64,000 bases of DNA from an uncultured virus (IMG/VR IMGVR_UViG_3300021400_004415). Its lineage: Duplodnaviria; Heunggongvirae; Uroviricota; Caudoviricetes. The notes under the pieces were generated by a model. It searched no databases, was not told the DNA's origin, and worked only from the letters and a program-made list of their open reading frames with translations. The stretch is from IMG/VR virus record IMGVR_UViG_3300021400_004415. One strand, given 5' to 3'. A program made the position numbers and the translations under genes. Shown one piece after another: positions 20,655 through 50,940 of the stretch (positions are counted from its first letter, which is position 1; each line of letters opens with the position of its first letter).

Positions 20655-20895
20655 CCTTAACTTTGCTTGGATTTTCACCTGCTATGGGACCTTCGGGCCC
20701 ATGGTCTGGGGAAAATCTGAGCGAAGTGGCAAAGGGATAAAACCCTTCCCCGCAAGGGTTCTCCGCGAAAATACAACCGCAAGGCCCCGTCAAGGGGCCG
20801 CAGCCGAGCGCAGCGAAGGGGCTACCGCACGGTGGAGATTTTCGCGGGGAACAGCTCCGTCAGCTCTACTGACGAAGCCCCTTGCAGGGGAAGGG
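20655..20895. promoter_or_regulatory. Structured repeat element A, putative ssDNA promoter / ssi
   Basis: TAACTTTG at 20658 in hairpin 1; second long hairpin with AAAATAC..GGTGGAGATTTT core; closely related to elements at 37807 and 47628. Confidence 0.7.
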
Positions 20896-20911
20896 CCCAT
20901 ACCCGTAGGGA

Positions 20912-21277
20912 TTAAAACCAAGCGAGCCTGACGTAATTGCTGTCGTCCGGTGTTTCCTTGAGCCAGGTACGGAAGAGTTTCAGTACGTTTTCTTTGGTGT
21001 ACTCGTTGTCTCTTCTTTTGCTGGTACTCCAGTCGTTTTTCATTTTTTCGTCGAACTCCTTTTCGGATAAGTTTTCTATTTCGGAAACCATTTCGGCGAA
21101 TTCTGTTTTGTTGATTTCCCAGATAACGTCCGTATCGGCGCAACCGTCGCTACCGCAGTAGAAGTCGTCGCAGTAATCGTCGATGATGTTTTCAAGTCGC
21201 CAGGCGTCGTAGTTGAATCCTGAAGCGTCACCGTATTCGATGACGTATTTCTTGATTGCTGTTGCTCTGAGTCCCAT
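20912..21277 (-). CDS. Acidic hypothetical protein
   Basis: 121 aa, D/E-rich, follows dprA. Confidence 0.75.
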   Translation of the reverse strand: MGLRATAIKKYVIEYGDASGFNYDAWRLENIIDDYCDDFYCGSDGCADTDVIWEINKTEFAEMVSEIENLSEKEFDEKMKNDWSTSKRRDNEYTKENVLKLFRTWLKETPDDSNYVRLAWF

Positions 21278-21288
21278 GTTTTGTAGTT

Positions 21289-21987
21289 TTAAAGGTTGAT
21301 TGTTGTGAGTGTTTTAGGGTCATACAGTATTTCGGCTATCCCCTCCTTTATCAGCTGGTTGCATCCTTCGCTCCTGAGGTCTCCCATTAGTCCGGGAACG
21401 GCGAAGACAGGAATGTCTTTTTCTTGGGCTAATCGGGCTATTACCATGGATCCTCCCTTCGCTTTTGATTCGACGATTATGACGGCATCTGCGAGGTGTG
21501 TGATGAGGTGGTTCCGCCAGATGAAGTTAATAGCAATGGGTGCTGTTTTATCTGGAAATTGTGTCACAAGACAGCATCCTTCGGTAGAAGCGATATCCGC
21601 AGCGAGATTTTCATGCTGCAGGGGGTAGATTTTATCCAGCCCTGTTGGCAGTACCGCCACCGTGGGAAGTCCTATCTGAAGGGCGAAACGGTGTGCGTAC
21701 TGGTCAACGCCGAAGGCAAGACCCGATACGATTATCGGTTTGTCTTCTCGTTTGGAAAGAGCCGTGATTATTTCGCAGACCGCCTGACGCCCGTAAGAGT
21801 CGATATCCCTTGTTCCTATGACGGCGACCCGTGGACGTCTTGCGGTTTCGGGAGCAAGGAGGAGCGAGGGGTCTCCCTTGATGTAGATGGTATCTGTCTC
21901 TTTCCCGTCAGCTCCTTTCGGACCAGGATAATTACTGTTGATGAGTTTAGCCCACTCGAGAGTATTTTTCTTTATTGTTGTTATCAT
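21289..21987 (-). CDS. dprA: DNA-processing protein DprA (SLOG/Rossmann core only)
   Basis: VAVIGTR, IVSGLAFGVD, TVAVLPTGLDKIYP, IVESKAKGGS, VFAVPG, SEGCNQLIKEG. Confidence 0.93.
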   Translation of the reverse strand: MITTIKKNTLEWAKLINSNYPGPKGADGKETDTIYIKGDPSLLLAPETARRPRVAVIGTRDIDSYGRQAVCEIITALSKREDKPIIVSGLAFGVDQYAHRFALQIGLPTVAVLPTGLDKIYPLQHENLAADIASTEGCCLVTQFPDKTAPIAINFIWRNHLITHLADAVIIVESKAKGGSMVIARLAQEKDIPVFAVPGLMGDLRSEGCNQLIKEGIAEILYDPKTLTTINL

Positions 21988-22000
21988 GATTATTCTGTTA

Positions 22001-23515
22001 TTAAACAGTTGTTGTTATCCTGTCAAGGTATCGGAACGAGGATGCTTCGGCCACGTGCACGGGCATCACCTTCTCGGTTCCGTCCATGTCAGCTATGGTG
22101 CGTGCCAGCCGGAGGATGCGCGTGTACGAGCGTGCGGAGAGGCCGAGGCGTGTGATGATCTTGTCAAGGATAACCTTCGTTTCAGGCTCGTCCCCGACGA
22201 CCTCCTCAAGCTTCTGTGCTGTCAGTTCGTCGTTAAGGCATCCCTGGCGTGCAAGCTGCTTCTCCCTTGTGGCTTGGACTCTCTTTCGGACATCCTCGAT
22301 GTCCTCGTGGCAGGTGTCCTCGACGGCGTTTGTCTGGTTGAGCCACACCTGCATCGCTATGTGGTCCATTACCGGCCCGCTGAGGTGTGACAGGTAAGCG
22401 GCTCTCTGCGCGGGTGTGCAGGTGCAACGGTCACCGACGCCGTAATAACCGCAGGGGCACGGATTGGTGGCGGCTACGAGTTGGAAGTTTGCCGGGTACT
22501 CAATCACGGTCCTGAGTCTTGTTATCTTTACCTCCTTGTCTTCGAGAGGCCCTCGTAGGGCCTCGGTGACGGCCTTTGGTATTTCAGCGAATTCGTCAAG
22601 GAAGAGCACCCCGTTATGTGCCAGGGATATCTCTCCGGGACGGATGTCGTCTGATGCGCCGCCGCCGAGAAGAGCGGGGAACGATATCGAGCAGTGGTGA
22701 GGAGCTCTGAAAGGAGGTCTTTTCTCGTCACGGTTTTTTATGTTCCCGGCTAGGGAGTATATGCCTGCCGTGACGGCGCTTTGCATGAAGCCCAGAGGGG
22801 GAAGGAGTTCCGCAAGGGCCTTTGCGCATGTGCTTTTCCCCGACCCCGGGGCGCCCACGAAGATGATGTTGTGTCCGCCTGAGGCTGCTATTTCGAGAGC
22901 CCTTCTTGCTGCTACGTTCCCCGCGTGTATGAGGTCCCATGCAAGGGGTTTTTTCTCCTTTTCCTGAGGGAACGTGAGGTCGTGCAGCTCTTTCACCTCG
23001 TCGGTCTTCCCTGTCAGCACTTTGACGGCTTCTCCGAGGGTATCGACCGGATAGACCTCTACTCCGCCTGCGAAAGGAAGGAGCTCTTCGGCGTTCGCCT
23101 TCGGCACTATGAGGGATAGTCCTTCCCTTTTTGCGAGAAAGAGGGCCGGGACGCATCCGGGTACGCTCCGGACGGAGCCGTCAAGGCCGAGTTCGCCTGC
23201 GATGAGGTACTTTTCGTGGGATAGGAACTGTGCCTGCTCGCTTGCCCCGATGACCGCAAGGGCTATGGGGAGGTCGAAGCCGCATCCACTCTTGCGGAGG
23301 TCTGCCGGTGCGAGGTTGATGACAATTTTCTTTCCGGGGATATTATACCCGTTAGCCTGTAAGGCTGTCACCGTCCTAAGGAGGCTCTCCCTCGCGGCGG
23401 TATCGGCCAGGCCCACAAGATGGATTCCGATATTTGAGGTGGCGATTTCTGTTTCAACGGTGACCGGGACAGCCTGGATGCCGACTGTCTTGAATGACTT
23501 GAGTGTGGTTATCAT
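22001..23515 (-). CDS. comM: ComM/YifB family AAA+ helicase
   Basis: VINLAPADLRKSG, GELGLDG, GAPGSGKS, PFRAPHH, GEISLAHNGVLFLDE, NPCPCG, LSAR..RLARTIAD. Confidence 0.95.
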   Translation of the reverse strand: MITTLKSFKTVGIQAVPVTVETEIATSNIGIHLVGLADTAARESLLRTVTALQANGYNIPGKKIVINLAPADLRKSGCGFDLPIALAVIGASEQAQFLSHEKYLIAGELGLDGSVRSVPGCVPALFLAKREGLSLIVPKANAEELLPFAGGVEVYPVDTLGEAVKVLTGKTDEVKELHDLTFPQEKEKKPLAWDLIHAGNVAARRALEIAASGGHNIIFVGAPGSGKSTCAKALAELLPPLGFMQSAVTAGIYSLAGNIKNRDEKRPPFRAPHHCSISFPALLGGGASDDIRPGEISLAHNGVLFLDEFAEIPKAVTEALRGPLEDKEVKITRLRTVIEYPANFQLVAATNPCPCGYYGVGDRCTCTPAQRAAYLSHLSGPVMDHIAMQVWLNQTNAVEDTCHEDIEDVRKRVQATREKQLARQGCLNDELTAQKLEEVVGDEPETKVILDKIITRLGLSARSYTRILRLARTIADMDGTEKVMPVHVAEASSFRYLDRITTTV

Positions 23516-23961
23516 AGGTAATCGTATATTTTTTCTGTATTGAATGAAAACAAGTCCTTATCTCCGATGATAAGGAAGTCCACGAGCTTGATTTGGAGTG
23601 TGTTGAGCGCCTTTTTGATTTCCTTGGCGGTGTTTATATCGTTTAAAGATGGTTCAGATTCACCTGTAGGGTGGTTGTGTACGATGATGACGCCGTCTGC
23701 GAGGATATCGATAGCCGTGCGGCATATCACTTTTACGTCAAGGTTGCATTTGTGCTGTGTCCCGACGCTTATGGTCTCGAAGCCGATGATGCGGCTTGCG
23801 TTGTTCGTGAAGACCGCGACGGCGGTCTCCCTCCAGCTGTTCTCTTCCTTGAAGATTTTCTCTTTGAGCCACTGCAGCAGTTTTTCCGGTTCTTGTATGC
23901 AGGGACCGAGTTCGCCTATGCGTTTTACGCTAGTACTGTACTGATAGGAATATTCTTTCAT
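23512..23961 (-). CDS. radC: RadC-like JAB domain protein
   Basis: IIVHNHPTGESEPSLND..LVDFLIIG; start placed at MKEYSYQY. Confidence 0.88.
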   Translation of the reverse strand: MKEYSYQYSTSVKRIGELGPCIQEPEKLLQWLKEKIFKEENSWRETAVAVFTNNASRIIGFETISVGTQHKCNLDVKVICRTAIDILADGVIIVHNHPTGESEPSLNDINTAKEIKKALNTLQIKLVDFLIIGDKDLFSFNTEKIYDYL

Positions 23962-24439
23962 TTTGATTGTCGTTTTTGATGATTTTGTCATCTTCGTTTG
24001 TGATATAGGAAAGGATTTCCGAGGCGGCGTCACCGCGTTTGAAGTAATGGCAGTAGGTCGGAACGACGAGGTATCCGTCGATGTAGTTGTTCTGCGTGTC
24101 GGTGACGACCCAGTAGAAGGGCTCAAGGTGTTTTTCCCTGTTTATGGTAAAGAACATATAAAGGATAACTTCTTCTTGGCGTTCTTTGTCAAGCAGTATT
24201 TCCTTGATCCGGGTGGGGATGTTATGCCGTGTAAACGGTTTCATGTCGAACTGCATGAGTTGTCCTTTCGGGAATGCCAGCTCAGCGCATTCCGTCTCTT
24301 TCCAGGGACGGATGTAACTGCTTACCTGGGTATTACAGAAGGCGTTCCCGGTTGTGATGCAGTTCGTCTGTTTATCAAACCGTTTCCAGCCGGAGGCGAT
24401 GATTTGTCGCCCTTTGTTGTTGTAGGTCGCTTTTTTCAT
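23930..24439 (-). CDS. Hypothetical protein, first gene of the radC-comM-dprA unit
   Basis: Start placed at MKKATYNN directly below element B. Confidence 0.7.
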   Translation of the reverse strand: MKKATYNNKGRQIIASGWKRFDKQTNCITTGNAFCNTQVSSYIRPWKETECAELAFPKGQLMQFDMKPFTRHNIPTRIKEILLDKERQEEVILYMFFTINREKHLEPFYWVVTDTQNNYIDGYLVVPTYCHYFKRGDAASEILSYITNEDDKIIKNDNQNERIFLSVQY

Positions 24440-24457
24440 GGCGTTTGAGGGAGTTGT

Positions 24458-24625
24458 ATTAACCTTTGTGGAGCCTTTCAGTCCGCCACGGGGTCTCCGA
24501 CACCGTAGGCGGGCTTGAAAGGACGGAACTGGTAAATACAACGGAAAACGGGCGAGTGAGCACCGGAGGAAAAATACTACCCTTCACGGGTGGAGATTTT
24601 TCCTCCGGGCGCAGCCGCCGCGACT
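24458..24625. promoter_or_regulatory. Structured repeat element B, putative ssDNA promoter / ssi
   Basis: CCGGAGGAAAAATACTACCC..GGGTGGAGATTTTTCCTCCGG core hairpin plus an upstream hairpin with a degenerate AACCTTTG box. Confidence 0.65.
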
Positions 24626-24688
24626 GGGACATGAAAATGAAACGGACTCTTTATGGGAGCCCGTTTCATCATTTGTCTGTTATCGTTG

Positions 24689-25027
24689 TTATTCATTTTC
24701 CGTGAAATAGGGTAGTCCTTCGGCTAGGATTCCCCTGACGAGGTAGTAAGCTTCATAGAGTCCGCTGGGGCATGAGGCTTCACAGAGGAAGTAACCGTCC
24801 TGTTCCTTGATGATTCGGTCTCCGTGTTCACGGTCGTCAAGGATAGTGTTCCGTATGGTTCCGTTAGCCCTTGCCGTGTCGATGTTCTCATGTCCGTAAT
24901 CCCATTCCGCAAGGTGTTCAAGGGCCTTCCTTGTCCATCCTCTCTTCACCCATTTCTTCACTTGTTCGAAGGAATCCTTATCAGAGGGCTGGTTGGTATC
25001 CAGCCTTACAATTTCATAATAAAACAT
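24689..25027 (-). CDS. Hypothetical protein
   Basis: Start placed at MFYYEIV; contains LEHLAEWDYG. Confidence 0.7.
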   Translation of the reverse strand: MFYYEIVRLDTNQPSDKDSFEQVKKWVKRGWTRKALEHLAEWDYGHENIDTARANGTIRNTILDDREHGDRIIKEQDGYFLCEASCPSGLYEAYYLVRGILAEGLPYFTENE

Positions 25028-25034
25028 ATAGGTA

Positions 25035-25313
25035 TCAGTTTTCGTAAATAATGTCAATTTCAGGGCTTTCGTGTATCTCTGGATTATAAAGCACGTCGGC
25101 TCCTTTGCGGATGGCTTCTTCACGTGAGGCGCAGGGGTAGTCGCAACCGTCTACGTGACAGTTCCACTTCTCGTCCCAGTACCACGCACCGGGCTCGTCG
25201 ACGGAGAAGTAATGCTCCTCACACTCTTTCCCCTTGTATGTGTATCGACGCATTACGGGGTGGCAACCTTTTCGGCAACCCTCGTCACTCTTGTATATAA
25301 GTGTTCTGCACAT
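25035..25313 (-). CDS. Hypothetical protein
   Basis: 92 aa, co-oriented. Confidence 0.65.
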   Translation of the reverse strand: MCRTLIYKSDEGCRKGCHPVMRRYTYKGKECEEHYFSVDEPGAWYWDEKWNCHVDGCDYPCASREEAIRKGADVLYNPEIHESPEIDIIYEN

Positions 25314-25328
25314 GAGAGGAAAAATTTT

Positions 25329-25826
25329 TTATAGTTGGTATGCTATTATCAATAGTTCCTCGGCTTGTTCTTTCAACAGGTTTTTCTCCTTTTCCGTGAG
25401 GACATCTATATTCTTGAAGCCTCCGTTGGCTGTCAGTTTGTTGATAGACTTAACCAGGAGCGCTTCGAAGGGCGTCAGGGACTGCTTGTCCCTTTCTCCC
25501 GGAATAAGGATTTTGGTGAAAGGAGGAGTGACGGTGACTGCCCGCACGATTTCTTTTTCCCCGTTTTTAACCCTGATGGTCCAGTTGTCATCCCTTTCTT
25601 CGCCCTCGACGTCCATTTCAATGACAGTCTCGGGGAATTCTTTCGAGACTTCCATAAGGTCATCGTCCGAGTCATACCACTTGGCGTCAAAGACGATTCC
25701 ACTGTCGGGTGAATCGTCTTTCTCTATGTTGTACCCGGAGCGGTCTTCTATTGCCTTGAAAATTTCTTTTGCTTTTTTCTCATCATCCGTATTTACAGTG
25801 ATGAAGTAGTTTGAACAGTATCCCAT
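25329..25826 (-). CDS. Phage/plasmid-type hypothetical protein
   Basis: MGYCSNY..KWYDSDDDLMEVSKEFP..GEERDDNW. Confidence 0.75.
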   Translation of the reverse strand: MGYCSNYFITVNTDDEKKAKEIFKAIEDRSGYNIEKDDSPDSGIVFDAKWYDSDDDLMEVSKEFPETVIEMDVEGEERDDNWTIRVKNGEKEIVRAVTVTPPFTKILIPGERDKQSLTPFEALLVKSINKLTANGGFKNIDVLTEKEKNLLKEQAEELLIIAYQL

Positions 25827-25830
25827 GGTG

Positions 25831-26682
25831 TTATTTGTTAGATAAGTAATCTGCCATTCCAAAGATGATATCGAGGAATAATGGATTTAGTTCATTTGTC
25901 AGGTCGCACAAAGGAACGTCTTCTTTGTACATGTCTCGTTTGTCACGCAGGAAGGAACCTTCCTTGTTGATGATTACCCACGATTCGTCAAGGTCGACGG
26001 CTTTTTCTCCCGACGGGAGGGTGATGAGTTTGTCTCCGGAGTAGTTATTGATTATTCCGAGGGCTTGTTTTAGCAGTTCCCTGGTCTGGGATGCGTATGC
26101 ATTTGCGAATGAATCGCAGTCCGGGTACGGGTAAATCGGCCTTGGCCATTCGAGCGGTTTTTCGTTATTTCCCGTTTTGTTCAGGGCGACGTGAGTCATT
26201 TGCATGTCTTCGATGTTATCTTTGATTTTTTCGACTGCTTCGTCGACAATCCGGGCGAATTCCTTTTCCGACGGATTACAGGGGTCGGTGACACTGATTG
26301 TAACCGTGGCTTCGGGAGAGAAGGAAACCGTGTAGGTTGATATCTTGGCTCCGAATGCCTCAGCTTTCCAGATATCCAGGAGTTCTTTCATCATGCTCTT
26401 GCAGGCTTTCATGTCGGCAAGGACATCCTCAGGGTCTTCCGGGGCTCCGTTCTGTCCCTTGCCGTCCCGGATCCAGAGCTGTGCTTCATCCCATGGATCA
26501 TAGCCGTCAATGTAATCCTCAAGGGCGCTGATAAGCTCCTGCGGTTTATTGGTCTTAGGAAGGGTAACGAAGAAATCCTGGCCTTCTGGAGAGTATTTCT
26601 GTATCTCGATTTCGTCCGAATATTTTCTTACGTCCCAGTCGTTTTCCTCTGCTATGGAGAGGAGTTTTTTGATTGTTGTCAT
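25831..26682 (-). CDS. Hypothetical protein
   Basis: Start placed at MTTIKKLL; KYSPEGQDF..GQNGAP. Confidence 0.75.
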   Translation of the reverse strand: MTTIKKLLSIAEENDWDVRKYSDEIEIQKYSPEGQDFFVTLPKTNKPQELISALEDYIDGYDPWDEAQLWIRDGKGQNGAPEDPEDVLADMKACKSMMKELLDIWKAEAFGAKISTYTVSFSPEATVTISVTDPCNPSEKEFARIVDEAVEKIKDNIEDMQMTHVALNKTGNNEKPLEWPRPIYPYPDCDSFANAYASQTRELLKQALGIINNYSGDKLITLPSGEKAVDLDESWVIINKEGSFLRDKRDMYKEDVPLCDLTNELNPLFLDIIFGMADYLSNK

Positions 26683-26695
26683 GGTTGTGTTGTTT

Positions 26696-26953
26696 TCAGT
26701 TTTCGATTTTCCAGAGCCAGACTTTGCCAGAGTATTTTGTTTCGACACAGGCGTCAGGTTCCGCCATGTGCGGCATTGATTCTTTCCAGTCCTCGGCATA
26801 GAGGTAGAAGTAACTCCCGTGTTCGATTTTCGGGGCGTCCTCTTTTGCTCCTATGAGTTCCTGGAGAGTGACAACGTCGGTGTAGTTCACGGTTCCTCCG
26901 TCAACGAGCAGTCCGGCGTCGTCGGCGGCTTTGAGTATGTCTATTGCTTTCAT
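26696..26953 (-). CDS. Hypothetical protein
   Basis: 85 aa, co-oriented. Confidence 0.65.
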   Translation of the reverse strand: MKAIDILKAADDAGLLVDGGTVNYTDVVTLQELIGAKEDAPKIEHGSYFYLYAEDWKESMPHMAEPDACVETKYSGKVWLWKIEN

Positions 26954-26967
26954 GGTTTTTGTCTTGT

Positions 26968-27245
26968 TTATTTGCGCTTTTTAGTGGCTTTGGTGATGAG
27001 CTCTTTCCCTGTGTCGATGACGATGGAATCAGGCATGGGGCCTCCGTTCTTGATGAAGAATTTGGCACGGCAGGCGTCCTCGAAGTACTTCATCGGGAAT
27101 TCTTTTCCCGGGAAGGAATCGGGATCGAATTCTCCTCTAAGCCAGAAGAGCCAGCGTTTTTCGTCTTTTCTCCATTCGAACTGGAAGAGTTCAAGTGGAG
27201 CGTAGAAACTGAGGCCGGTGTAGTTGTTTAGGGTGGTAGCTATTT
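26968..27245 (-). pseudogene. Protein-like open frame without a canonical start (fragment or frameshift extension)
   Basis: Frame reads IATTLNNYTGLSFYAPLELFQFEWRKDEKRWLFWLRGEF..TKKRK*; lies in the -1 frame relative to the upstream ORF end. Confidence 0.45.
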
Positions 27246-28088: not shown

Positions 28089-28103
28089 GGCGTTTTTTCG
28101 TTT

Positions 28104-43078: not shown

Positions 43079-43085
43079 GACCGTA

Positions 43086-43478: not shown

Positions 43479-43491
43479 GGTGTGACGGTTT

Positions 43492-43977
43492 TTAGATTTT
43501 CACGTCGAGTATAGCTCCGACATAGAGTGTCTTCGGGGTGTAGCCCGCGAGGTAGTCGGCGGCGACGGTGGAGAAGTTCTGGCAGTATGAGCCGTAGAAG
43601 AGGTCTTGCACTCCGATGGTCCTGGTGTCGAGTCTCAGCTGGTATTCGGCCATGCTGACCTCGTCATTCTGGAAATGTTTCTTGAAAGACTGGAACGCCT
43701 GTTCGATTTTCTCCAGTATGCTTTCCTTGACTGTCTTGGTGTCGCGGAACTGGATGATCCCGGTATTGACGTCGACGAGGGCGTAGGGTTCCATTGCCTT
43801 CTTGAGCTGTTCCAGCGCGTTTTTCCTTTTCTCTCCCACGACGGGGTCGCCGTAGTATTCCGTATCGGCCAGAAGGGGATCCACGCTGCCGAAGGAGTCG
43901 TAAAGGTCGGTTTCGTCGATGTAGTTTTCCTTCTCGACGGGGTATCCGCTCACTTGGATGATATTGATGTGTGCCAT
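43492..43977 (-). CDS. Hypothetical protein
   Basis: 161 aa, co-oriented. Confidence 0.75.
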   Translation of the reverse strand: MAHINIIQVSGYPVEKENYIDETDLYDSFGSVDPLLADTEYYGDPVVGEKRKNALEQLKKAMEPYALVDVNTGIIQFRDTKTVKESILEKIEQAFQSFKKHFQNDEVSMAEYQLRLDTRTIGVQDLFYGSYCQNFSTVAADYLAGYTPKTLYVGAILDVKI

Positions 43978-44105
43978 GTTTGTTATGTGTGTTATTCTGT
44001 TATAAAACTAAAGTCAGTTATTATTTTCGGGCAGGAAGTCGATGACTACCAGCAGGCCCAGGATAAAGAGAAGCAGCGCTGTCATGGTAAAGGGTTTTCA
44101 GCGTG

Positions 44106-44393
44106 CTATCTGTCGGAATACACCTTCGAGTGGAAGGTGATCTTCTCGCCTCTTTCACCATAACGCGTAGCGTCGATATAGAACGTGCTCCTTGACAGTC
44201 CGGACAGCCAGGTGTCATGTCCGAGGATGTCTTCAGCTTCCTTGCGGGTGATTTCGACGGTTTTTTTGCTGTCAAGGTGCAGGGTATAGGTGGTACGCGT
44301 GTAGGCGTAGTCAATCTCCTGCACGTCATTTACAGAGTAGCCCTTCTCTAAAAGTTGCTCTCTGTCACTGTGGGATAATCTGTATTTAGACAT
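44106..44393 (-). CDS. Hypothetical protein
   Basis: 95 aa; LGHDTWLSGLSRSTF. Confidence 0.7.
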   Translation of the reverse strand: MSKYRLSHSDREQLLEKGYSVNDVQEIDYAYTRTTYTLHLDSKKTVEITRKEAEDILGHDTWLSGLSRSTFYIDATRYGERGEKITFHSKVYSDR

Positions 44394-44448
44394 GGTTGAA
44401 AATGTTAATGGGTTTCTTGAATACTGTTTGAAAGGCGGGAGAGGTGTC

Positions 44449-44472
44449 GGGCCCGGCCGTATGGCCGGGCCC
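44449..44472. terminator. GC hairpin after the VWA gene
   Basis: GGGCCCGGCC-GTAT-GGCCGGGCCC perfect stem. Confidence 0.6.
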
Positions 44473-44488
44473 TCATCCCAACGGTCTC

Positions 44489-46348
44489 TTAGGCGGCGTA
44501 GGTCCTGGTCTGCGTCTTCAGGACGATTTTCTTTACCACTGTCGATATGCCTTTTACGAGGTTCTGCATGTTGGACATGTCAATCCATTGGTCGTACATG
44601 GCTTTGAGTTCCGTCTGTGGTAGGCCGCTTGATATGGAGATTCCGATAATCTCGAAATTCTTCTTTTTGGCTTCCTCCACCGCGTTTCTTACGCTTATGG
44701 CTCCGCCGTTGGCCCCTCCGTCCGAGATGACGAGAAGCACGCTCTTTGTCTTTGACTTCTCGCGTATGCGCTTGACACTCTCGCGTATGGCCTCTGCGGT
44801 CGGGGTGCCGGAATGACTGGATATGCTTCCGAGGGTTTCCTTGTTGTAAGGCTTGCCCCATTCCCTGTAAGGGAAGAGAATGTTGTATTGGTAATCGTTC
44901 GTGTAGCCGTAAATGTTCAGTTCCACATTCGGGACATTGCCTACAGCCTCGTTGATAAGGACGGCTGTCTGCCGTGCAAGTTCTTCGCGTATGCCGTCCA
45001 TCGAGCCGCTTTCATCAATCAGGAGGCTGATATTTACCCTGTCGGGGCGTATTATCTCCTGCCTGCAGAAGACATTCTTGCTTCCCTGGATCGCTTCGGC
45101 GATTTTATTTCCGTCAAGCACTCCGCGTTTGAGGCCCGTCTGGTAGGTGTTCCTTTCGTGCCCGTGGATTGCAAGGGCCTTCGTTACGGCGGGGATATAT
45201 TTTTTTACGGCGTTGAGCGTCTTGCGGTATTTGTTTTTGTCGGGCTCCTTGCTTACCACTACGGCGTTGTCTCCGATTTCGAGTTCTCCTTCGGCGTCCT
45301 TGGCAATAAGGTGTCCGTCTATTTTCGCGGCTTGGGACATGTCCTCCTCCTCGATTTTCTGTCCGTTTTGACGGAGGTTGTCTTCAATGGCTTCGAGGAT
45401 TTTTTCAAGGATTTTTTCTATTTCTTCGTCGGTGAGGGGCTTCTTGCTTTTGGCGTTTTTGCCGGAGCCATTTCCGCCCTTGCCGCATCCACCCTCTTCG
45501 CCGTCCTCGCCGGATTCTCCGCCGGACTCTCCGTCGGACTCATTTTCATCCTCGTCGTCCTGGTCTTCAATGAATTCTTTTATGAGTTCATAGACTTCCT
45601 CGGCGGCGGTTATCGCTTCTGCGGTGTTCTCCGGATAGGGGGTAAGTATCTCGCGGGTCTTAATGAGTATGTCCACGAATTCTTCCACTTCTTCAATGCT
45701 CATTGCTGCCGGATAGCGAATGAGTTTCAGGATTGCGTTGAAGCATCTTGCGATTTTCTGAGTCACGGGTCCCTCTTCCTTTTCTTTCTTGCCGAAGTAG
45801 TAGTACTTGGTGGCCTTGAGGAAGTTTGCGAGTCCAGGACAGTCTTCGCCGAGGCGTCTTTCAATCATCTCGTCCTCTATCACATTTTGGATTGAGTGCA
45901 ACACCCTGTTGTTTGGCATCTTCTTGAACAGTTCGAAGTCCGAGTAGAGGAGGTGGCTTCCCTCATGCACGGCTTCGCCGATGAACACATCGAGTTTCTT
46001 TCCGAGCGAGAGTTCCTTGTCGTCGAAGACCTTCGTGGCTACCCACACTGTCTTGGAGTTCGTGCAGTTGTTGTCGCTGTTAATTTTCACCGTCACTTTA
46101 TAGGGGTGTCCCATAGAGGCAATCATATTCCTTGCAATGCTCATAGCGTTGCGGTAGAGGTCCTTGACTGTCTTGGGGTGCAGTATCGCCTCGGAGTAGG
46201 CGGAGTCCTTAGGGAGCGTGTCTTCCCAGCCGAGTCGGTCGGTGGTGCGGATACGCACATAGGTCTTTCCGTCTCTTTCGAGGAAGTCCTTTTCGAGGAG
46301 TTCAATCTTCTCCTGAAGGGACAGTGTGTTTATGTCTTGGTTCTGCAT
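44489..46348 (-). CDS. CobT-like protein: HExxH peptidase-like domain, acidic linker, C-terminal VWA domain
   Basis: AVHEGSHLL..NVIEDEMIE; D/E/G linker; LLIDESGSM MIDAS, GTPT, ISDGG. Confidence 0.88.
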   Translation of the reverse strand: MQNQDINTLSLQEKIELLEKDFLERDGKTYVRIRTTDRLGWEDTLPKDSAYSEAILHPKTVKDLYRNAMSIARNMIASMGHPYKVTVKINSDNNCTNSKTVWVATKVFDDKELSLGKKLDVFIGEAVHEGSHLLYSDFELFKKMPNNRVLHSIQNVIEDEMIERRLGEDCPGLANFLKATKYYYFGKKEKEEGPVTQKIARCFNAILKLIRYPAAMSIEEVEEFVDILIKTREILTPYPENTAEAITAAEEVYELIKEFIEDQDDEDENESDGESGGESGEDGEEGGCGKGGNGSGKNAKSKKPLTDEEIEKILEKILEAIEDNLRQNGQKIEEEDMSQAAKIDGHLIAKDAEGELEIGDNAVVVSKEPDKNKYRKTLNAVKKYIPAVTKALAIHGHERNTYQTGLKRGVLDGNKIAEAIQGSKNVFCRQEIIRPDRVNISLLIDESGSMDGIREELARQTAVLINEAVGNVPNVELNIYGYTNDYQYNILFPYREWGKPYNKETLGSISSHSGTPTAEAIRESVKRIREKSKTKSVLLVISDGGANGGAISVRNAVEEAKKKNFEIIGISISSGLPQTELKAMYDQWIDMSNMQNLVKGISTVVKKIVLKTQTRTYAA

Positions 46349-46359
46349 GGTCGTCTGAT

Positions 46360-47565
46360 TTATCTTGCCAGAATCATGTTCTTAACTATGGCCTTTTCGC
46401 CTTCTACTTCGGTTCCCTCGAAGAGTTCAAGGAAAATGCTCTCAAGCGCGTACTGTGTCGAGCGTCCCGCTTCTACATAGCGTGCTGCGTACATCACATC
46501 GCGGGTGGTAACCGTGTTGGAGAGGTCACCGGCAATGTACTTGTTCCTGACCTGTTCCGCCACCTTGGTTATGTTCACTGCGTCCGCCTGGTTGATTTTG
46601 TATTTCTCAAGTAGCCATGCTGCCTCTTTGTCGCGGGGCATGTATTTCAGCGTCTTTTCCCTGAAGCGGCTGCGGAGCGCCTTGTCAAGGGGATTGGTGT
46701 TATACTCGGGGCCCTCGTTGATTGTTGCCACGAAGCGACATTTAGGGTTTACCTTTATCTCCCTTGCGCTCTTGCTGTCCGCGAGTTCAATGAACATCGT
46801 CTGTCGGAAGTCAAGGATACTCATAAGGCTCGTGGAAGCCTCGTTGCGTGCCCTGTTGAGTTCGTCCAGAACGATTATGCATTCTGTCTGTATCTCCTGT
46901 GAGAAACGGGCGTAGTCAAAGACTGAACGGCCCCCTTCTATCCTGTGTACGCCCTGCATCTGGGCCACAGGGTCGAACATCGTTGACATGTCGTAGATGT
47001 GTACCGGTACACCGAACACCTTCCCGAGGAGGACTGCTATGGAGGTCTTGCCTGTTCCGGCAGGGCCTTTGAAGAGAATGTTCCTGCCGTCAATCATATC
47101 GAGAATGATATCCTGCCAGGTCTCGTCATTGATGTAGAAGCCCTCTTTCTGGATAGTCGGGGTGGCGTACATCGGATTGTTGACAATCTTGTCAATCATC
47201 TTCATCGGCCCGTTGTTGACGATCCTGGTCTTCTGTTCCACCTCGCCGTTGGCGAGTTGGTAGGCTACCCATTCATCCTTGGCCTGCTGGGGGGCCTCGT
47301 CGGCGGCGTCAATGACCCTGTCGCTCTTGATTACATAGAGTTTGTCTGCGGCAGCGTAGAAAGGAGTCTGTAAGGATGTCCGGAGTTCGCAAGCCGTGGA
47401 GGCGAAGATTGTCCCGTAGGGATACTTTCTTCTGACATTCGTGTCGCCCTGGCAGTTCAGGTTGGGGTTAATGTCTACGCCTGATTCATGGATTTGTTTT
47501 GCAAGCGGACGGAGTTTGTTGTCTTTACCGACTTGGACTGTGGTGAAGAAGTAGAATTTTTTCAT
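46360..47565 (-). CDS. MoxR-type (CbbQ/NirQ/CobS-like) AAA+ ATPase
   Basis: GPAGTGKT Walker A, IVLDELNRA Walker B, FVATIN, LDKALRSRF, TTRDV. Confidence 0.9.
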   Translation of the reverse strand: MKKFYFFTTVQVGKDNKLRPLAKQIHESGVDINPNLNCQGDTNVRRKYPYGTIFASTACELRTSLQTPFYAAADKLYVIKSDRVIDAADEAPQQAKDEWVAYQLANGEVEQKTRIVNNGPMKMIDKIVNNPMYATPTIQKEGFYINDETWQDIILDMIDGRNILFKGPAGTGKTSIAVLLGKVFGVPVHIYDMSTMFDPVAQMQGVHRIEGGRSVFDYARFSQEIQTECIIVLDELNRARNEASTSLMSILDFRQTMFIELADSKSAREIKVNPKCRFVATINEGPEYNTNPLDKALRSRFREKTLKYMPRDKEAAWLLEKYKINQADAVNITKVAEQVRNKYIAGDLSNTVTTRDVMYAARYVEAGRSTQYALESIFLELFEGTEVEGEKAIVKNMILAR

Positions 47566-47627
47566 TTTCTTTAGATTTGTTCTCTGACCTTTGTCAGGCG
47601 AGAGAGGTTAATGTATCTTGTTTTGTT

Positions 47628-47872
47628 CCTTACCTTTGCGAGAGATTTTTACCCGACCTATGGGACCTTTGGGCCCATGGGGATGGGAAAAATCTAAGCG
47701 AGGTAAAGGGAACAAAATCCTTCCGGTCAAGGGTTCCCCGCGAAAACACGACCGCAAGGCCCCGTACGGGGCCGCAGCCGAGCGCAGCGAAGGGGCTACT
47801 GCACGGTGGAGGTTTTCGCAGGGGAAGCAATGGAACGAGCTCCGCGAGTGGAATCCCTTGACTGGAAGGACC
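47628..47872. promoter_or_regulatory. Structured repeat element F, putative ssDNA promoter / ssi
   Basis: TACCTTTG box; shares ACCGCAAGGCCCCGT..GGGGCCGCAGCCGAGCGCAGCGAAGGGGCTAC with element A. Confidence 0.7.
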
Positions 47873-47908
47873 ATTACTTGATACATTGGTACGGTTGCCC
47901 GGTTTCTT

Positions 47909-48589
47909 TTAATCCTCGAAGCGGATACTTGACAGGACGGACTGGTAGTCGATATCGTCGCCCTTTTTGCTTGCCTTGTCAAGCGCGTCAATGAGCATCT
48001 TGTCATTCTTGTCGTTCCAGTTGTACGCTACGAGGAACGAGTCTTCATCGAAGTCCATGGAGGAAAATACCTTGCATCTGCTCCAGTTACCCTTATTGTC
48101 TGTCCCGACGGCATAGTAAAGCGCCTTGCCCGTGTTGTCCTGGATAATACCCATTATGTTGGCCCACTGGGAATTGGGGAACTCCTGGTCGGGGCCGAAG
48201 TGCCAGCGGCGCGAGGCCTCTTCTGCATCTTCTATGAAGGTCTTGTCGACTCGCAGTACGATAATGTCGTCTTTCTTGTCCTCATCAATGGGGACGAAGG
48301 TAACCTGTGCGTCTTCTATGTTGGAACCGATGCAATTTTTGATTTCATCCTCGAAGACATCCCAGGCGAACGCATAATCCTCTTCATCATCGGCGGGGCT
48401 CGTGATAGTCTCGTTGGTGATTAGATTCTTCCAAACCTCCTTGTACTTGATATCCGATTCGTTGTGAATCTCATATGTGAGTTTGCCGCAAAGGAGTTCC
48501 CTGATATTATTGCTGTCGTAGGTGCAGGCGATTATTATGCTTCCTTTTATGTCGGTACGGGTAACGGTGTAGATAGCGTTTGTTAACAT
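47909..48589 (-). CDS. Acidic hypothetical protein
   Basis: 226 aa, D/E-rich. Confidence 0.75.
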   Translation of the reverse strand: MLTNAIYTVTRTDIKGSIIIACTYDSNNIRELLCGKLTYEIHNESDIKYKEVWKNLITNETITSPADDEEDYAFAWDVFEDEIKNCIGSNIEDAQVTFVPIDEDKKDDIIVLRVDKTFIEDAEEASRRWHFGPDQEFPNSQWANIMGIIQDNTGKALYYAVGTDNKGNWSRCKVFSSMDFDEDSFLVAYNWNDKNDKMLIDALDKASKKGDDIDYQSVLSSIRFED

Positions 48590-48616
48590 AGTTATGTTTG
48601 TTAGTTTGTTATTCTG

Positions 48617-49864
48617 TTAAAAAGGGTAATCTAAGTTTTCTTCTGTTTCGGCCTCTGGGGTCGAACAGGTCGGCACGATGGCCGTTTTGCTTTGAAGCAT
48701 CTCGATGAGTTGTTTCGAGTTCTTCTTTATCTGTTTTTCAATTATTTCGTGAATGTCTTTTCCACTGGTTTCGATGAAATTGTTTTTGTAATATGTATAG
48801 TTGAATTTTAGTCCGTTTTCTGAATTGTTGCGGGTCATTATGAGGATTCCTTCGTTTTTGTCGTCCCTGTAGTGGAAAGTCATAGTTTCGGGGCTGTCGA
48901 GAGGCTGGTTACAGTCTATGATGGCATTCGTAAGGTTCATCGAAGTGCAGATTTTATATCCCTGGGCCGTGCTTGTGATAGGCTCCATATTCTTCAGGTA
49001 TGCGGGATGATTGTATTTTATTATGCAATTCCTGAACGCATTGTATTCCACGAGGATGTCGTAGTATCTGCCAATCAATTTCCTGGCTGTTTCGAGCATC
49101 TGGGGTAAGTTCCCGTGCGGGTCTATGGTGCAACCGACCTCTCTTGCGTATTTTGTGACCATATTGAATGCGCGGTACTCGTGTTGGGTCTTGCTTATTC
49201 TGCAGGCCTTCTTTATTGCATAGTCGAGGTGTTCGGGCGCCACGGCCGCCTTGATGGTGCTTATGCCGTTTATGTTACCGTCATATATGGACATTTGGAA
49301 CCATTTTTCAATGGTCTCAGGTGATGCCGTCGTTATGCCGTACTTTGATTTGAAGCTCTCAATCAGGAGGTCTTCGCGTGTCCTTATCTTCCCTGCAACC
49401 AGTTTCTTGATTACGGTTTTATTGATAAGTTCGGGTTGCACTTTCTCATATGTTTGTACGCTTGCTCCCGTCGGGAGGTCTATGATGGGCTCGCTGATGT
49501 TCTGTGCTCCCAGTTCCTCTGCAAGGATTGTGAACATAACGGAGTCTCTGTAGTTCTCTCCGCGGAACTTGCCGTTTATAATCGAGAACTTGGATACCCA
49601 TTCTCCTTTTACGGCATAGTTCGCTCCTAATTTCTTGAGCCCTATATGCCTGCGTCCTACGAATACATTTTTTCTGTCGTTGTCTATGCGGCAGAGGATA
49701 TAGTTTTCTACCAGGTCACCCCTGTTGTAGTAATGGGCTAGCACGGCTTTCGGGAGTTTCTTCAGTTCGTCGAAGGCGATTGGGCTTTTATCGATGTTGT
49801 AACGGGTCGTCGTTGTGCCGTTCTCGTCGGTGCCGTAATTGATTTTTTCGGTGTAGATAGCCAT
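48617..49864 (-). CDS. Hypothetical protein with acidic-PF C-terminal tail
   Basis: 415 aa ending EAETEENLDYPF. Confidence 0.75.
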   Translation of the reverse strand: MAIYTEKINYGTDENGTTTTRYNIDKSPIAFDELKKLPKAVLAHYYNRGDLVENYILCRIDNDRKNVFVGRRHIGLKKLGANYAVKGEWVSKFSIINGKFRGENYRDSVMFTILAEELGAQNISEPIIDLPTGASVQTYEKVQPELINKTVIKKLVAGKIRTREDLLIESFKSKYGITTASPETIEKWFQMSIYDGNINGISTIKAAVAPEHLDYAIKKACRISKTQHEYRAFNMVTKYAREVGCTIDPHGNLPQMLETARKLIGRYYDILVEYNAFRNCIIKYNHPAYLKNMEPITSTAQGYKICTSMNLTNAIIDCNQPLDSPETMTFHYRDDKNEGILIMTRNNSENGLKFNYTYYKNNFIETSGKDIHEIIEKQIKKNSKQLIEMLQSKTAIVPTCSTPEAETEENLDYPF

Positions 49865-49882
49865 ATTTTTTCTTTTTTTTAT

Positions 49883-49908
49883 CCCCGGCCTCCGTATGGG
49901 GGCCGGGG
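49883..49908. terminator. GC hairpin between genes
   Basis: CCCCGGCCTCC-GTAT-GGGGGCCGGGG. Confidence 0.55.
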
Positions 49909-49918
49909 TTGTTTCTTT

Positions 49919-50722
49919 TTAGAATGGGAGGTCTGCTTCATCATCTTCGAAGTCGGGGGTGTCTTCGATTTCCTTTTCCTTTTCCTTTTCCTTTTCCTTG
50001 TCAAGCCGTTCGAGTCTGTCGCAGAGGTCCTGGTCCAACTGCTTCGTCAGGCTGAACAGGAACCATTTCTGAGTAAGGTTTTCGTTCAGTTTCTTGAAAA
50101 GGATTACAAGGTCCGCATAGTCGTTGAAATTCTCCCAGCAATCTTCCGCCATTGTCCCGGCGTCTTTTACTTCAATCATCTCCATGAATACCTCTTCCCT
50201 GCTGTTTCTTGAGGAAATTGTACCACAGATAGGAATGTTGTAACAGTCGCCGGAGAATCCCATTGTCTCGACCGTGTCGATAATCTTGTTGACTGTTTCG
50301 GTAATGCACTTGTGGGCTGTTTCCTGGATTTCATCGTAGATTGTGCGGGCGTCTTTCCCTTCTACGCTTATCTCTTTTGTCTGCCTGTCAAAGGACTGCT
50401 TTGTCTCTGCCTGTATCTTTTTGAACTTTTCTATAAGTTCATCGACGCTTTCGGGCTGGTCGTTCCTGGCGTAGAAAATCCTTTCGGTCTGGTAGTATTT
50501 CGGCATCATCGAGGTGCCGGGGTCTTCGGTCGCCGTTTCCATTTCCTCCCTTGTGTCGAATTCAAGGATTTCTATGGGGTTGTAGTCTCCGGGCTTGTAT
50601 CCGAGTTCCTCGGAGTAGATTTTCACCCATGTCTCGGCGTCCCAGCGCTCGTCTTCGTGGTTTGTCATCGCCTCGTAGGCCTCGTCTCCGTAGAGTACGA
50701 TTGCTTTGAATTTAGTGCTCAT
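49919..50722 (-). CDS. Acidic hypothetical protein with SSB-like C-terminal tip
   Basis: 267 aa ending DFEDDEADLPF. Confidence 0.75.
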   Translation of the reverse strand: MSTKFKAIVLYGDEAYEAMTNHEDERWDAETWVKIYSEELGYKPGDYNPIEILEFDTREEMETATEDPGTSMMPKYYQTERIFYARNDQPESVDELIEKFKKIQAETKQSFDRQTKEISVEGKDARTIYDEIQETAHKCITETVNKIIDTVETMGFSGDCYNIPICGTISSRNSREEVFMEMIEVKDAGTMAEDCWENFNDYADLVILFKKLNENLTQKWFLFSLTKQLDQDLCDRLERLDKEKEKEKEKEIEDTPDFEDDEADLPF

Positions 50723-50752
50723 TTTAAAAGAGTTTAAAAGTGTGTTCAGGTG

Positions 50753-50940
50753 CTAACTTGCGTTAATTTCATCACCCCTGGCGGGGGCTTGTCCCCCAGA
50801 GGGGGTGGGAAATTTGCGCAAAGGAAAGCACCGGAACTTCTTGCCGGCAAGGGTTCCACAAGAAAATACTACCCCCTTGCGGGGTGGAGATTTTCTTGTG
50901 GAAGGAGCCGGAGGCGACCAGCGCCCTTGCAGGCGAGAAT
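50753..50940. promoter_or_regulatory. Structured repeat element G, putative ssDNA promoter / ssi
   Basis: TAACTTG box; TTCCACAAGAAAATACTACCCC..GGGGTGGAGATTTTCTTGTGGAA core; CAAGGG..CCCTTG stem. Confidence 0.7.

Follow-up and report, generated by a model that had tools for sequence, protein, structure and literature searches.

The window, that is, the whole stretch of DNA analysed here, is 64,000 nt long. Genes for MobC and a relaxase lie at its left end and are followed by 45 kb of minus-strand genes (Pfam; Table 1). In brief, this block encodes DprA-like and ComM-like proteins, RadC, RNase H, two SSB proteins, a C5 methylase and an AAA/VWA pair, together with many genes without a family (Pfam). 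The oriT probably lies in the region indicated in Table 1, which also carries conventional divergent -7 boxes, with TAnnTTTG at 3137 (-), 3161 (+) and 3189 (+). The preliminary description had placed the locus in a conjugative setting and had taken the plus strand for the template. The relaxase and the co-oriented minus-strand genes support this: we regard the locus as a conjugative leading region in a Bacteroidales ICE. If the relaxase gene is the last to enter, as is the rule, the plus strand would be the one transferred. The layout is as in the window in all seven genomes where a relaxase was found 14-29 kb away on the same contig, five of these seven belonging to one genus. Across the minus-strand block there are 19 consensus -7 boxes on the plus strand versus 2 on the coding minus strand, a count that is inflated because the plus strand is T/G-rich.

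Table 1. Features of the window
Feature	Position	Strand	Details
Relaxase gene	676..2109	-	Pfam PF03432, E 2.1e-21; sets predicted transfer direction
Putative oriT region	2917..3242		between MobC/NikA-relaxase operon (-) and ParA-like operon (+); from gene layout
Co-oriented leading-region-like genes	8214..53045	-	about 45 kb; Pfam
Element A, permuted	20650..20925	+	hairpin 1 20650-20740, box TAACTTTG 20658-20665
Element A, hairpin 2	20743-20895	+	core 20779-20842; TTG 20882-20884; ATG of next gene 20632
Element B, permuted	24450..24660	+	degenerate box TAACCTTTG at 24461; core 24571-24600; ATG 24439
Element C, permuted	30048..30250	+	box TAGCTTTG 30057-30064; core 30163-30190; ATG 30024
Element D, permuted, core replaced	31770..32000	+	box TAACTTTG 31780-31787; ATG 31755
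Element E, permuted	37800..38010	+	box TAACTTTG 37810-37817; core 37919-37948; ATG 37640
Element F, permuted	47620..47885	+	box TACCTTTG 47631-47638; ATG 47565
Element G, permuted	50745..50945	+	degenerate box TAACTTGC at 50754; core 50863-50894; ATG 50722
Element H, canonical, one long hairpin	51541..51760	+	TTG 51702-51704, N21, TAAATTTG 51726-51733 on 3' arm

The preliminary description had listed seven related elements, A to G, each ahead of minus-strand genes. All were found where it had placed them, with a minus-strand ATG ORF next to each. The ATG lies 17 (A), 13 (B), 24 (C), 17 (D), 159 (E), 55 (F) and 22 nt (G) from the base of hairpin 1, that is, within 13-24 nt in five of the seven; the distance is 23 nt in locus L221, a B-like copy from another sample. 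The motifs had also been read correctly. The left arm of hairpin 1 carries a -7 box that is exact in A, C, D, E and F and degenerate in B and G. The GGTGGAGATTTT part of the AAAATAC..GGTGGAGATTTT core is exact in five elements (A, B, C, E, G); F departs from it at one position (AAAACAC..GGTGGAGGTTTT), and D has no such core. In hairpin 2, elements A, D, F and G carry a TTG within the right arm. Element C is also present in the metagenome locus L196, and element E contains an exact GCGAAGC mini-hairpin at 37970.

Each of the seven elements folds into two adjacent long hairpins with both DNA and RNA parameters. Hairpin 1 has z-scores of -4.6 to -8.5, and not one of 200 shuffles folded equally well; the four stretches of hairpin 2 that were tested gave -5.5 to -7.5. 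The gap between the hairpins is 0 nt in C, E and F, 1 nt in G and 2 nt in A, and linkers of 6-8 nt are found in D, in L221 and in B (6 nt), where hairpin 2 is short. The lower stem of hairpin 1 takes in the box and the bases preceding it, and varies among the copies with matching changes.

The fold had been assigned to the plus strand, and this strand does fold better than the minus strand in all seven cases, both for whole elements and for hairpin 1 alone. The reverse complement folds too, and the elements occupy the spaces that separate co-oriented genes, the upstream stop codon lying 17 nt from hairpin 2 of element A, as might be expected of intergenic hairpins that stabilise or process a polycistronic minus-strand mRNA. 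We consider such a role highly improbable. Besides the better plus-strand fold in 7/7, isolated G·T pairs outnumber A·C (93 versus 38, with 53% expected from composition; p 3e-5), and the mini-hairpin motif C-GNA-G occurs 61 times on the hairpin strand versus 7 times on its complement, a skew also seen in the flanks (45 versus 24). An mRNA structure would also leave no role for the conserved promoter boxes.

The core motif of A-G forms the tip of the canonical form, a single long hairpin that occurs across Bacteroidota. An exact-pattern scan gave at least 124 loci across Bacteroidota and at least 74 unique ones with ACC/GGT context; the conservation of the core in this set is a consequence of the search pattern and is no finding. 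On the canonical 3' arm a TTG is followed, after about 19-23 nt, by TAnnTTTG. A plus-strand TAnnTTTG lies downstream of the core in 53 of the 72 listed loci, 51 of these at +40 to +69. The exact box is found on the outward-facing 3' arm in 49/69 listed loci and on the gene-facing 5' arm in 1/69 (controls, 3 and 2/69), and a TTG precedes the box by 18-23 nt in 40/58 listed loci. Element H, described earlier as non-permuted, is of this form: its TTG and box lie on the right arm, its core is degenerate (GGAAAATTACC..GGATGAATTTTACC), and an SSB gene (51143-51520, minus strand) begins 20 nt from its left base. A literature search found no published description of the canonical or the permuted hairpin form, in agreement with the preliminary description, which knew of none for the permuted one.

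Elements A-G are circular permutations of the canonical hairpin. As had been proposed, the -7 box and its partner sit on a separate hairpin that abuts hairpin 2, and the canonical -7 position holds only remnants (TAGGGATT, TACATTGG, TACCTGTC). A covariance model (R1), for which most sequences came from other genomes, recovers six cores in the window (E 5e-15 to 2e-6), every one of them on the plus strand; it does not detect D or H. Among the matches listed, the permuted form is restricted to this ICE lineage, namely the window, its near copy L196 and L221. Both this restriction and the mere remnants at the canonical position would suit decayed elements that have lost their -7 box, each lying beside an unrelated palindromic repeat and without present function. 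Decay is nevertheless very unlikely in our view. The exact box is kept in hairpin 1 of five of the seven elements while the stem diverges with matching changes, the strong folds, tight junctions and position before a start codon are retained in all seven, and L221, although from another sample, keeps an exact TAACTTTG.

The genes adjoining the canonical hairpins were examined on the 5' side, on the opposite strand. Among 20 tested, nine encode DUF6943, six SSB, one an N6 methylase, one DUF6266 and one a weak DnaJ match, and two have no family. Less favourably, an ATG ORF of at least 70 codons within 200 nt is present on the predicted side in only 18 of 38 canonical representatives versus 8 of 38 on the other side. 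Judged by sequence, the canonical promoter in duplex DNA faces away from the SSB, DUF6943 and methylase genes, and in the folded strand it would drive them. Such a geometry makes sense only for a single-strand promoter.

Covariation of the stems had been suggested as a check on the fold, and the family alignment (33 sequences, 27 pairs) supports it. Paired positions amount to 92.9% versus 77.6% in shuffles, and the covariation score is 0.388 versus 0.120 in shuffles, with 0 of 500 shuffles reaching it and slid controls at 0.105 or below. In the lower stem, with the box masked, complementarity to the own arm has a median of 12 versus 6 between elements (p 6e-25, n=52). Pairing drops to 0.33-0.50 within TAnnTT, a bubble at the -7 box, and is 0.88-0.90 directly after it. 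The covariation, the G·T excess, the mini-hairpins, the bubble and the orientation towards relaxase genes point to a folded transferred strand, as in Frpo of plasmid F.

The plus-strand consensus box would read rightward in duplex DNA and the plus-strand RNA fold is also strong, so an ordinary duplex promoter might produce a structured small or antisense RNA comprising upper hairpin 1 and all of hairpin 2; small RNAs are numerous in Bacteroides (PMC7366714, PMC11697453). We find this quite unlikely. The stem of hairpin 1 extends over the box and the 7-10 nt preceding it and shows matching changes from copy to copy; this pairing would be impossible in the RNA because the RNA would start after the box. 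The RNA of a canonical element would leave out the whole hairpin. In linear DNA only two of eight copies have a TTG 18-23 nt ahead of the box, and reading the sequences of A-G by eye revealed no T run directly after a hairpin downstream of hairpin 2. Neither the window elements nor the 20 family loci tested have a match in Rfam. The FopS small RNAs, 65-70 nt long, regulate glycan uptake and are not linked to conjugative elements in the account of PMC11697453. Conventional sigma-ABfr promoters of Bacteroides and Flavobacterium, with -7 TAnnTTTG and TTTG near -33 (PMC7366714), share the -7 consensus with the elements, whose boxes differ in lying on the strand opposite the adjoining genes and inside a hairpin that covaries and opens into a bubble at the box.

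The nearest known systems are the 'class 1' single-strand DNA promoters, Frpo1 and Frpo2 of F and ssi1-3 of ColIb-P9/pESBL. According to PMC9849209, PMC12672017 and PMC11541004, these are likewise stem-loops of the transferred strand, present in several copies per element in the leading region before ssb and early genes, which rebuild promoter boxes in duplex form and act only as long as the complementary strand has not been made. The boxes found here are those of the primary sigma factor of Bacteroidota (-33 TTG, -7 TAnnTTTG), not -35/-10. Frpo2 shows only short, chance-level sequence matches and no counterpart of the conserved tip motif; a consensus scan did not place its boxes, and the comparison with Frpo2 covers sequence and tip motif.

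A likeness is also seen in the antirestriction (KlcA-like) operon of F, which is described in PMC12672017 as induced early and as having a newly found class of single-strand promoter. One long transferred-strand hairpin precedes the antirestriction gene, as in the canonical form, and its 3'-arm boxes (CTTGCA, 16 nt, TAAGAT) point to the base. On that arm GGCGAAGCGTACCCTTGCA, which contains a GCGAAGC mini-hairpin, is 18/19 identical to the canonical Bacteroidota motif and occupies the same place. The F hairpin differs in its sigma-70-type -10 box and lacks the AAAATAC..GGTGGAGATTTT tip. Model R1 finds no match in plasmid F, so kinship would rest on this 19-nt motif, and one short motif cannot separate common descent from convergence.

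Eight elements over 31 kb of predicted transferred strand could also be single-strand initiation signals, the folded strand recruiting RNA polymerase or primase for synthesis of the complementary strand and gene expression being incidental. C-GNA-G mini-hairpins, enriched here on the predicted transferred strand, are known from such signals and occur in the phage G4 origin, RSF1010 ssiA and the hairpin promoters of the phage N4 virion RNA polymerase, where polymerase or primase likewise reads folded ssDNA (PMC13037366); those are short hairpins served by dedicated enzymes, and the elements here are 200-280 nt long with boxes for a host sigma factor. Frpo is itself described as a source of primer RNA, both in PMC12672017 and in the title of a 1997 paper by Masai and Arai that PMC9849209 cites. 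Priming as the main role is unlikely, however. A primase signal needs no sigma-factor boxes, and yet TAnnTTTG is exact in most of the listed loci with TTG at promoter spacing; moreover, the elements lie tightly before start codons and show no random spread on the strand. As proposed for Frpo, priming is compatible with a promoter, and the transcripts of A-G may prime complementary-strand synthesis too.

Based on the structures, folding strand, covariation, motif positions and gene contexts described above, we infer that the elements act as promoters on a single strand, a reading that is well supported at the level of sequence. In the canonical form the transferred strand would fold as one long, imperfect hairpin in which the 3' arm serves as non-template and the 5' arm as template; RNA polymerase would therefore exit via the hairpin base and enter the gene lying 5' of it. 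In duplex DNA these boxes point the opposite way and, since consensus boxes should still fire there, an outward-facing RNA may also be made. In A-G, by comparison, the break in the duplex falls between the -33 and -7 regions, and a new loop caps it past the predicted start site. This puts the -7 box on the 5' arm of hairpin 1, with its partner strand continuous into the 5' arm of hairpin 2. Transcription would start on the 3' arm of hairpin 1, pass round its loop, copy the 5' arm and continue into the gene block. Hairpin 2 would contribute the conserved tip and the duplex upstream of the box; stacked on hairpin 1, it would in some copies also bring in a -33 TTG.

The coaxially stacked split promoter of the preliminary description is suggested by some of the copies. 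Counted across the junction, three of eight copies have a TTG at 19-20 nt from the box, namely A, F (TTG-N20) and G (TTG-N19). At N20 element E has TTC and element C has GTG, nothing is present in B and L221, and with DNA folding parameters D does not match the arrangement. A split -33/-7 promoter is plausible but only suggested by these spacings. The -33 box may be dispensable altogether; according to PMC7366714, none could be made out in Flavobacterium johnsoniae. With or without it, we consider it fairly probable that the elements are promoters on the folded single strand of an ICE entering its recipient, and that they would be the Bacteroidota counterpart of Frpo and ssi.

The seven elements A-G, which the preliminary description had reported on the plus strand of the window, were all found in place, each with two adjacent long hairpins that are seen with DNA as well as with RNA folding parameters. 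The z-scores of hairpin 1 range from -4.6 to -8.5 (0 of 200 shuffles fold equally well), and the fold belongs to the plus strand, which is more stable than the minus strand in all seven. The left arm of hairpin 1 carries a -7 box matching the sigma-ABfr consensus TAnnTTTG, exact in A, C, D, E and F and degenerate in B and G. Hairpin 2 carries the core AAAATAC..GGTGGAGATTTT in five elements (A, B, C, E and G) and a variant of it in F; D has lost it. All seven adjoin minus-strand genes. The ATG lies 13-24 nt from the base of hairpin 1 in five elements (A, B, C, D and G) and farther away in F (55 nt) and E (159 nt). Element H is non-permuted, with TTG-N21-TAAATTTG on the 3' arm of its single hairpin and a degenerate tip; its -7 box is exact, and an SSB gene starts 20 nt from its left base. 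What had been observed on A-G and H is thus confirmed.

The layout of the window is summarized in the table. By Pfam, the co-oriented tract encodes DprA-like and ComM-like proteins, RadC, RNase H, two SSB, a C5 methylase and an AAA/VWA pair, next to many genes without a family, and these gene families are those of a conjugative leading region. In conjugative elements the relaxase gene, as a rule, enters the recipient last. By this rule, the plus strand would be the transferred strand and also the template of the tract genes. Consensus -7 boxes in the tract number 19 on the plus strand versus 2 on the minus strand, an excess that is inflated by the T/G-rich composition.

Positions of features in the window
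Feature	Position	Strand	Remarks
Anaerobic ribonucleotide reductase, N-terminal part	2-670	minus	ATP-cone and NRDD; directly downstream of relaxase gene
Relaxase gene	676-2109	minus	PF03432; left end of window
SSB gene	left end of window		with relaxase and MobC/NikA-like genes
MobC/NikA-like gene	2512-2916	minus	
Spacer, 326 nt	between MobC/NikA-like gene and ParA-like operon		divergent conventional -7 boxes
ParA-like operon	right of 326-nt spacer	plus	
Stretch of about 2.2 kb without long ORF	5990-8210		near putative oriT
Co-oriented tract, about 45 kb	8214 to about 53045	minus for nearly all long ORFs	
Strong GC hairpin	32400-32445		T-runs on both strands; follows outer-membrane beta-barrel gene, just right of element D
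Element H	51541-51760		non-permuted
Eight direct repeats of about 32 nt	52689-52994		AAAGTTACCACTTACTACTGACCG common to them; between last leading-region gene and gene 53045-54331
TraO-like and fimbrial genes	right of about 53045	plus	

Some features of the window lie apart from the elements. The anaerobic ribonucleotide reductase fragment belongs either to the cargo of the integrative conjugative element (ICE) or to its chromosomal flank. The stretch near the putative oriT is rich in GC-rich hairpins and short repeats, e.g. GGTTTGTAnGGGTGGT at 6182, 6904 and 10696. The direct repeats look like candidate iterons or a partition/regulator binding array. The strong GC hairpin looks like a candidate two-way terminator; its Rfam match to BSnc120 is weak and at chance level (26.5 bits versus a gathering score of 114).

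An exact-pattern scan for the core, using one genome per species, gave at least 124 loci, with at least 74 unique loci in ACC..GGT context. The hosts belong to Flavobacterium, Chryseobacterium, Aequorivita, Tenacibaculum, Marivirga, Fontibacter, Paludibacter, Segatella, Cryptobacteroides and others. The search pattern fixed the core, so its conservation among these loci is not a finding; the surrounding architecture was left free. In a phylum sample, 11 of 401 genomes contain the core, and a reversed control pattern was found in none. The core forms the tip of a single long hairpin in the collected loci, the canonical form of the element, to which window element H belongs. Among the matches listed, a same-strand TAnnTTTG follows the core in 53 of 72 loci (51 of these at +40 to +69), and in 40 of 58 canonical representatives a TTG precedes the box by 18-23 nt (21 nt in H). 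An exact, outward-facing box is found on the 3' arm in 49 of the 69 loci among the matches listed, versus 1 of 69 for a box on the 5' arm pointing outward on the other strand, with inward-facing controls at 3/69 and 2/69. This indicates that the promoter is on one arm only.

In duplex form, the canonical promoter faces away from the hairpin's 5' side. In the folded single strand, the 3' arm would act as non-template and the 5' arm as template, so that the polymerase would exit via the hairpin base along the 5' flank. The genes on the 5' side of canonical hairpins are on the opposite strand. Twenty of these were tested among the matches listed, giving nine DUF6943, six SSB, one N6 methylase, one DUF6266, one weak DnaJ match and two without family. 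A count of neighboring ORFs is less clean than these examples suggest. Among the matches listed, 38 representatives have 700 nt on both sides; when ORFs that begin with ATG, span 70 codons or more and lie within 200 nt are counted, 18 have one on the predicted side (distances cluster at 33-79 nt) versus 8 on the other side (80-188 nt). An earlier, crude call of neighbor strands among the matches listed was ambiguous (left 20 minus versus 12 plus, right 13 versus 13).

DUF6943 (about 140 aa, motif PHFFILSKGNNAGKP) is the most frequent gene directly behind canonical elements among the matches listed (L001, L014, L020, L032, L041, L046, L068, L076 and L079). A metagenome-assembled Dysgonomonadaceae genome (locus L072) has a full Bacteroidales-1 (6S-like) RNA at 537-715 on the plus strand, 161 bits, approximately 290 nt upstream of its canonical element.

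In seven genomes a PF03432 relaxase gene is located 14-29 kb from the core on the same contig (G405, G452, G499, G640, G742, G663 and G597). All seven have a layout like that of the window, with the hairpin strand running 5' to 3' away from a relaxase gene on the other strand; five of the seven are from one genus, and they thus represent few independent lineages. Genome G406, whose relaxases lie at distances of 100 and 240 kb, is ambiguous, and the remaining core loci have no relaxase on the same contig.

Covariation, which the preliminary description wanted tested on the window elements, supports the hairpin in the canonical family. In 33 diverse canonical sequences among the matches listed, the 27 consensus pairs of the upper part of the hairpin are 92.9% paired versus 77.6% in shuffles, cells changed on both sides number 128 versus 40, and the covariation score is 0.388 versus 0.120. 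Not one of the 500 shuffles comes up to these values, and controls with slid arms stay at or below 0.105. An invariant CAAGG:CCTTG duplex, containing the -33 TTG, sits between freely covarying pairs. The lower stem was not alignable by MAFFT, and we therefore compared the arms of each element with those of other elements, with the box masked; complementarity was higher between own than foreign arms among the matches listed (median 12 versus 6, n=52, p 6e-25).

As to which strand folds, isolated oppositions within helices comprise 93 G·T and 38 A·C, where composition predicts 53% (p 3e-5). The pattern x-C-GNA-G-x' occurs on the arms 61 times on the hairpin strand versus 7 times on the complement (p 7e-12), with a milder skew in the flanks (45 versus 24) and 25 versus 9 in the window elements. 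GCGNAGC mini-hairpins are described in PMC13037366 as unusually stable DNA structures, with examples from the origin of phage G4, from ssiA and from the hairpin promoters of phage N4. Pairing of the box region with the 5' arm, in the 58 of 90 representatives among the matches listed that have a box, is 0.6-0.8 before the box, 0.33-0.50 inside TAnnTT, 0.88-0.90 at the two bases after it and then 0.7-0.85 for about 15 nt. The low pairing at TAnnTT is a pre-opened -7 element within the duplex.

The enterobacterial single-strand promoters Frpo and ssi are similar in several respects. The window elements lie in a leading region and on the inferred transferred strand, which is the template of the adjacent genes, and H and the canonical family have both promoter boxes in the hairpin duplex. 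A blastn search (word size 7) against three leading-region spacers of plasmid F gave only matches of 10-21 nt. R1, a covariance model of the core built mainly from genomes other than the window, gave no matches on the F leading region, and the boxes of F Frpo2 were not placeable by consensus scan. The best F match, with E 0.005 in a database of 15 kb, is a 19-nt motif located in front of the antirestriction gene. The spacer at this gene (4343-4755, minus, in plasmid F, L250) forms one long hairpin on the transferred strand, and its 3' arm reads GGCGAAGCGTACCCTTGCA, then TAAGAT 15-16 nt on. The 19-mer is 18/19 identical to GGCGAAGCGAACCCTTGCA, which has the same place in one canonical Bacteroidota subtype, and the shared motif includes a GCGAAGC mini-hairpin adjoining the -35-like box. 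PMC12672017 reports that the F antirestriction operon is early-induced, under a single-strand promoter that belongs to a newly recognised class. Based on the shared hairpin form and motif place, the canonical geometry is the same as that of a plasmid element with experimental backing. The shared motif could be due to common descent or to convergence on a DNA folding nucleus, and we do not claim descent.

A search of Rfam 15 gave no family at gathering score in the window or in 20 related loci, and at the elements nothing up to E 5 (window) or E 1 (related loci). Single-strand origins of the ssoA type, found in rolling-circle plasmids and ICEBs1, have RSB and CS-6 motifs and a primer RNA made by RNA polymerase. 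Identity with the FopS small RNAs of Bacteroides was rejected on grounds of size and biology; PMC11697453 describes these as glycan-uptake regulators of 65-70 nt, and they target susC mRNAs through an R1 seed.

Hairpin 2 is homologous across A-G. It has a CAAGG-like left arm, and its right arm reads CCCTTGCAG in A and G, CCCTTGACT in F, CCCATTCGTG in E and CCCGTGCGG in C. The helix stops approximately 10-13 nt past this motif, and the expected box site holds mere remnants, e.g. TAGGGATT, TACATTGG and TACCTGTC. Instead, hairpin 1, 5' of hairpin 2, is made up of the box with its imperfect partner, and the partner strand continues directly into the 5' arm of hairpin 2. By DNA folding, the two hairpins abut (0 nt) in C, E and F, whereas linkers of 1, 2, 6 and 8 nt separate them in G, A, B and D, respectively (0 in D by RNA folding). 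Judged from sequence, this arrangement is the one expected if the canonical hairpin were circularly permuted. MAFFT gave a weak consensus for the eight hairpin 1 sequences (19 pairs, 9 changed on both sides, energy -2.6), and conclusions on hairpin 1 rest on the per-copy folds. A long-range helix around both hairpins was dropped, as only 6-bp matches were seen by eye, in A and E.

Among the genome and metagenome matches listed, the permuted layout is found only in this ICE lineage, namely in the window and in two loci outside it, L196, a copy of C, and the B-like L221, in which TAACTTTG is still exact and an ORF lies at a distance of 23 nt. None of 74 genome loci among the matches listed has a box at the permuted position. 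The metagenome scan for the layout brought up mostly canonical elements, L196 and L221 being the only permuted ones. In the canonical loci the TTTGC anchor had matched the start-codon region of the neighboring gene, 100-120 nt left of the core, where gene starts read …TTTGCCAT, the reverse of ATGGCAAA. When element E was compared by BLAST with 401 genomes of the order, short core matches were the only result. Canonical elements frequently occur in tandem pairs (L001, L041, L054 and L076) with cores 363 nt apart (720 nt in L054), as two subtypes, the 'CTTGACCTTG' type first and then the 'GGCGAAGCGAACCCTTGCA' type. Pairing of the first element's box with the second's partner strand would resemble hairpin 1 and is a possible origin of the permuted form.

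The preliminary description held that the boxes of A-G stand in permuted order and meet only on folding. The layout stands, as a circular permutation of the canonical hairpin; the composite TTG holds in three of eight copies only. Read from the right arm of hairpin 2 into the left arm of hairpin 1, the composite is TTG-N19-box in A and G, TTG-N20-box in F, TTC-N20-box in E and GTG-N20-box in C, and B and L221 have nothing at the -33 position. These spacings are inside the canonical range, whose mode is 23. On a continuous strand, TTG is found 18-23 nt before the box in only two (D and E) of the eight copies, A-G and L221. The duplexed box of A-G is the -7 in hairpin 1, and a -33 TTG exists only across the junction of the hairpins, in three of the eight copies.

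A split, stacked promoter is a reasonable reading of the permuted copies. In brief, the two hairpins of the entering strand would stack end to end, so that the template runs on without a gap and the non-template strand is interrupted. RNA polymerase would start inside hairpin 1, on its 3' arm, and the leader of the transcript would round the loop and re-read the arm earlier used as non-template strand. Initiation on a single-stranded template always heads to its 5' end, and the gene-ward direction is thus independent of these details. A -33 element was not identifiable in Flavobacterium johnsoniae, according to PMC7366714, and may be dispensable; if so, stacking of hairpin 2 may matter for the upstream duplex and not for the box.

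For the family as a whole, the reading as single-strand promoters is well supported by sequence comparison. The consensus boxes should be active in duplex too, firing antisense. We put forward, as a tentative joint proposal, that the promoter is circularly permutable as a three-dimensional object, as in A-G, and that the wider family is a phylum-wide two-direction switch. To our knowledge, experimental proof of single-strand promoters is limited to enterobacterial plasmids. Literature searches of main texts gave no description of single-strand promoters in Bacteroidota or of a permuted one, in line with the earlier supposition that the architecture is undescribed. The main text of PMC11541004, the principal leading-region survey, does not contain the term Bacteroid*. 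A remark in PMC12672017 holds that single-strand promoters are probably tuned to the host sigma factor.

If the proposal is true, establishment genes would be transcribed from these boxes as long as the strand is single and folded; in the duplex state the boxes would fire antisense into the upstream gene, helping to silence the region. The Bacteroidota are a dominant phylum in gut and environment, and their ICEs move resistance and fitness genes. A Bacteroidota version of the single-strand promoter would provide a sequence signature by which three parts of these elements could be recognised: leading region, transferred strand and early genes, the last probably with anti-defence roles. DUF6943 and like families that recur behind the hairpins are candidates for a role in establishment or anti-defence. 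From the permuted copies it would follow that single-strand promoters are defined by folded shape and not by linear order.
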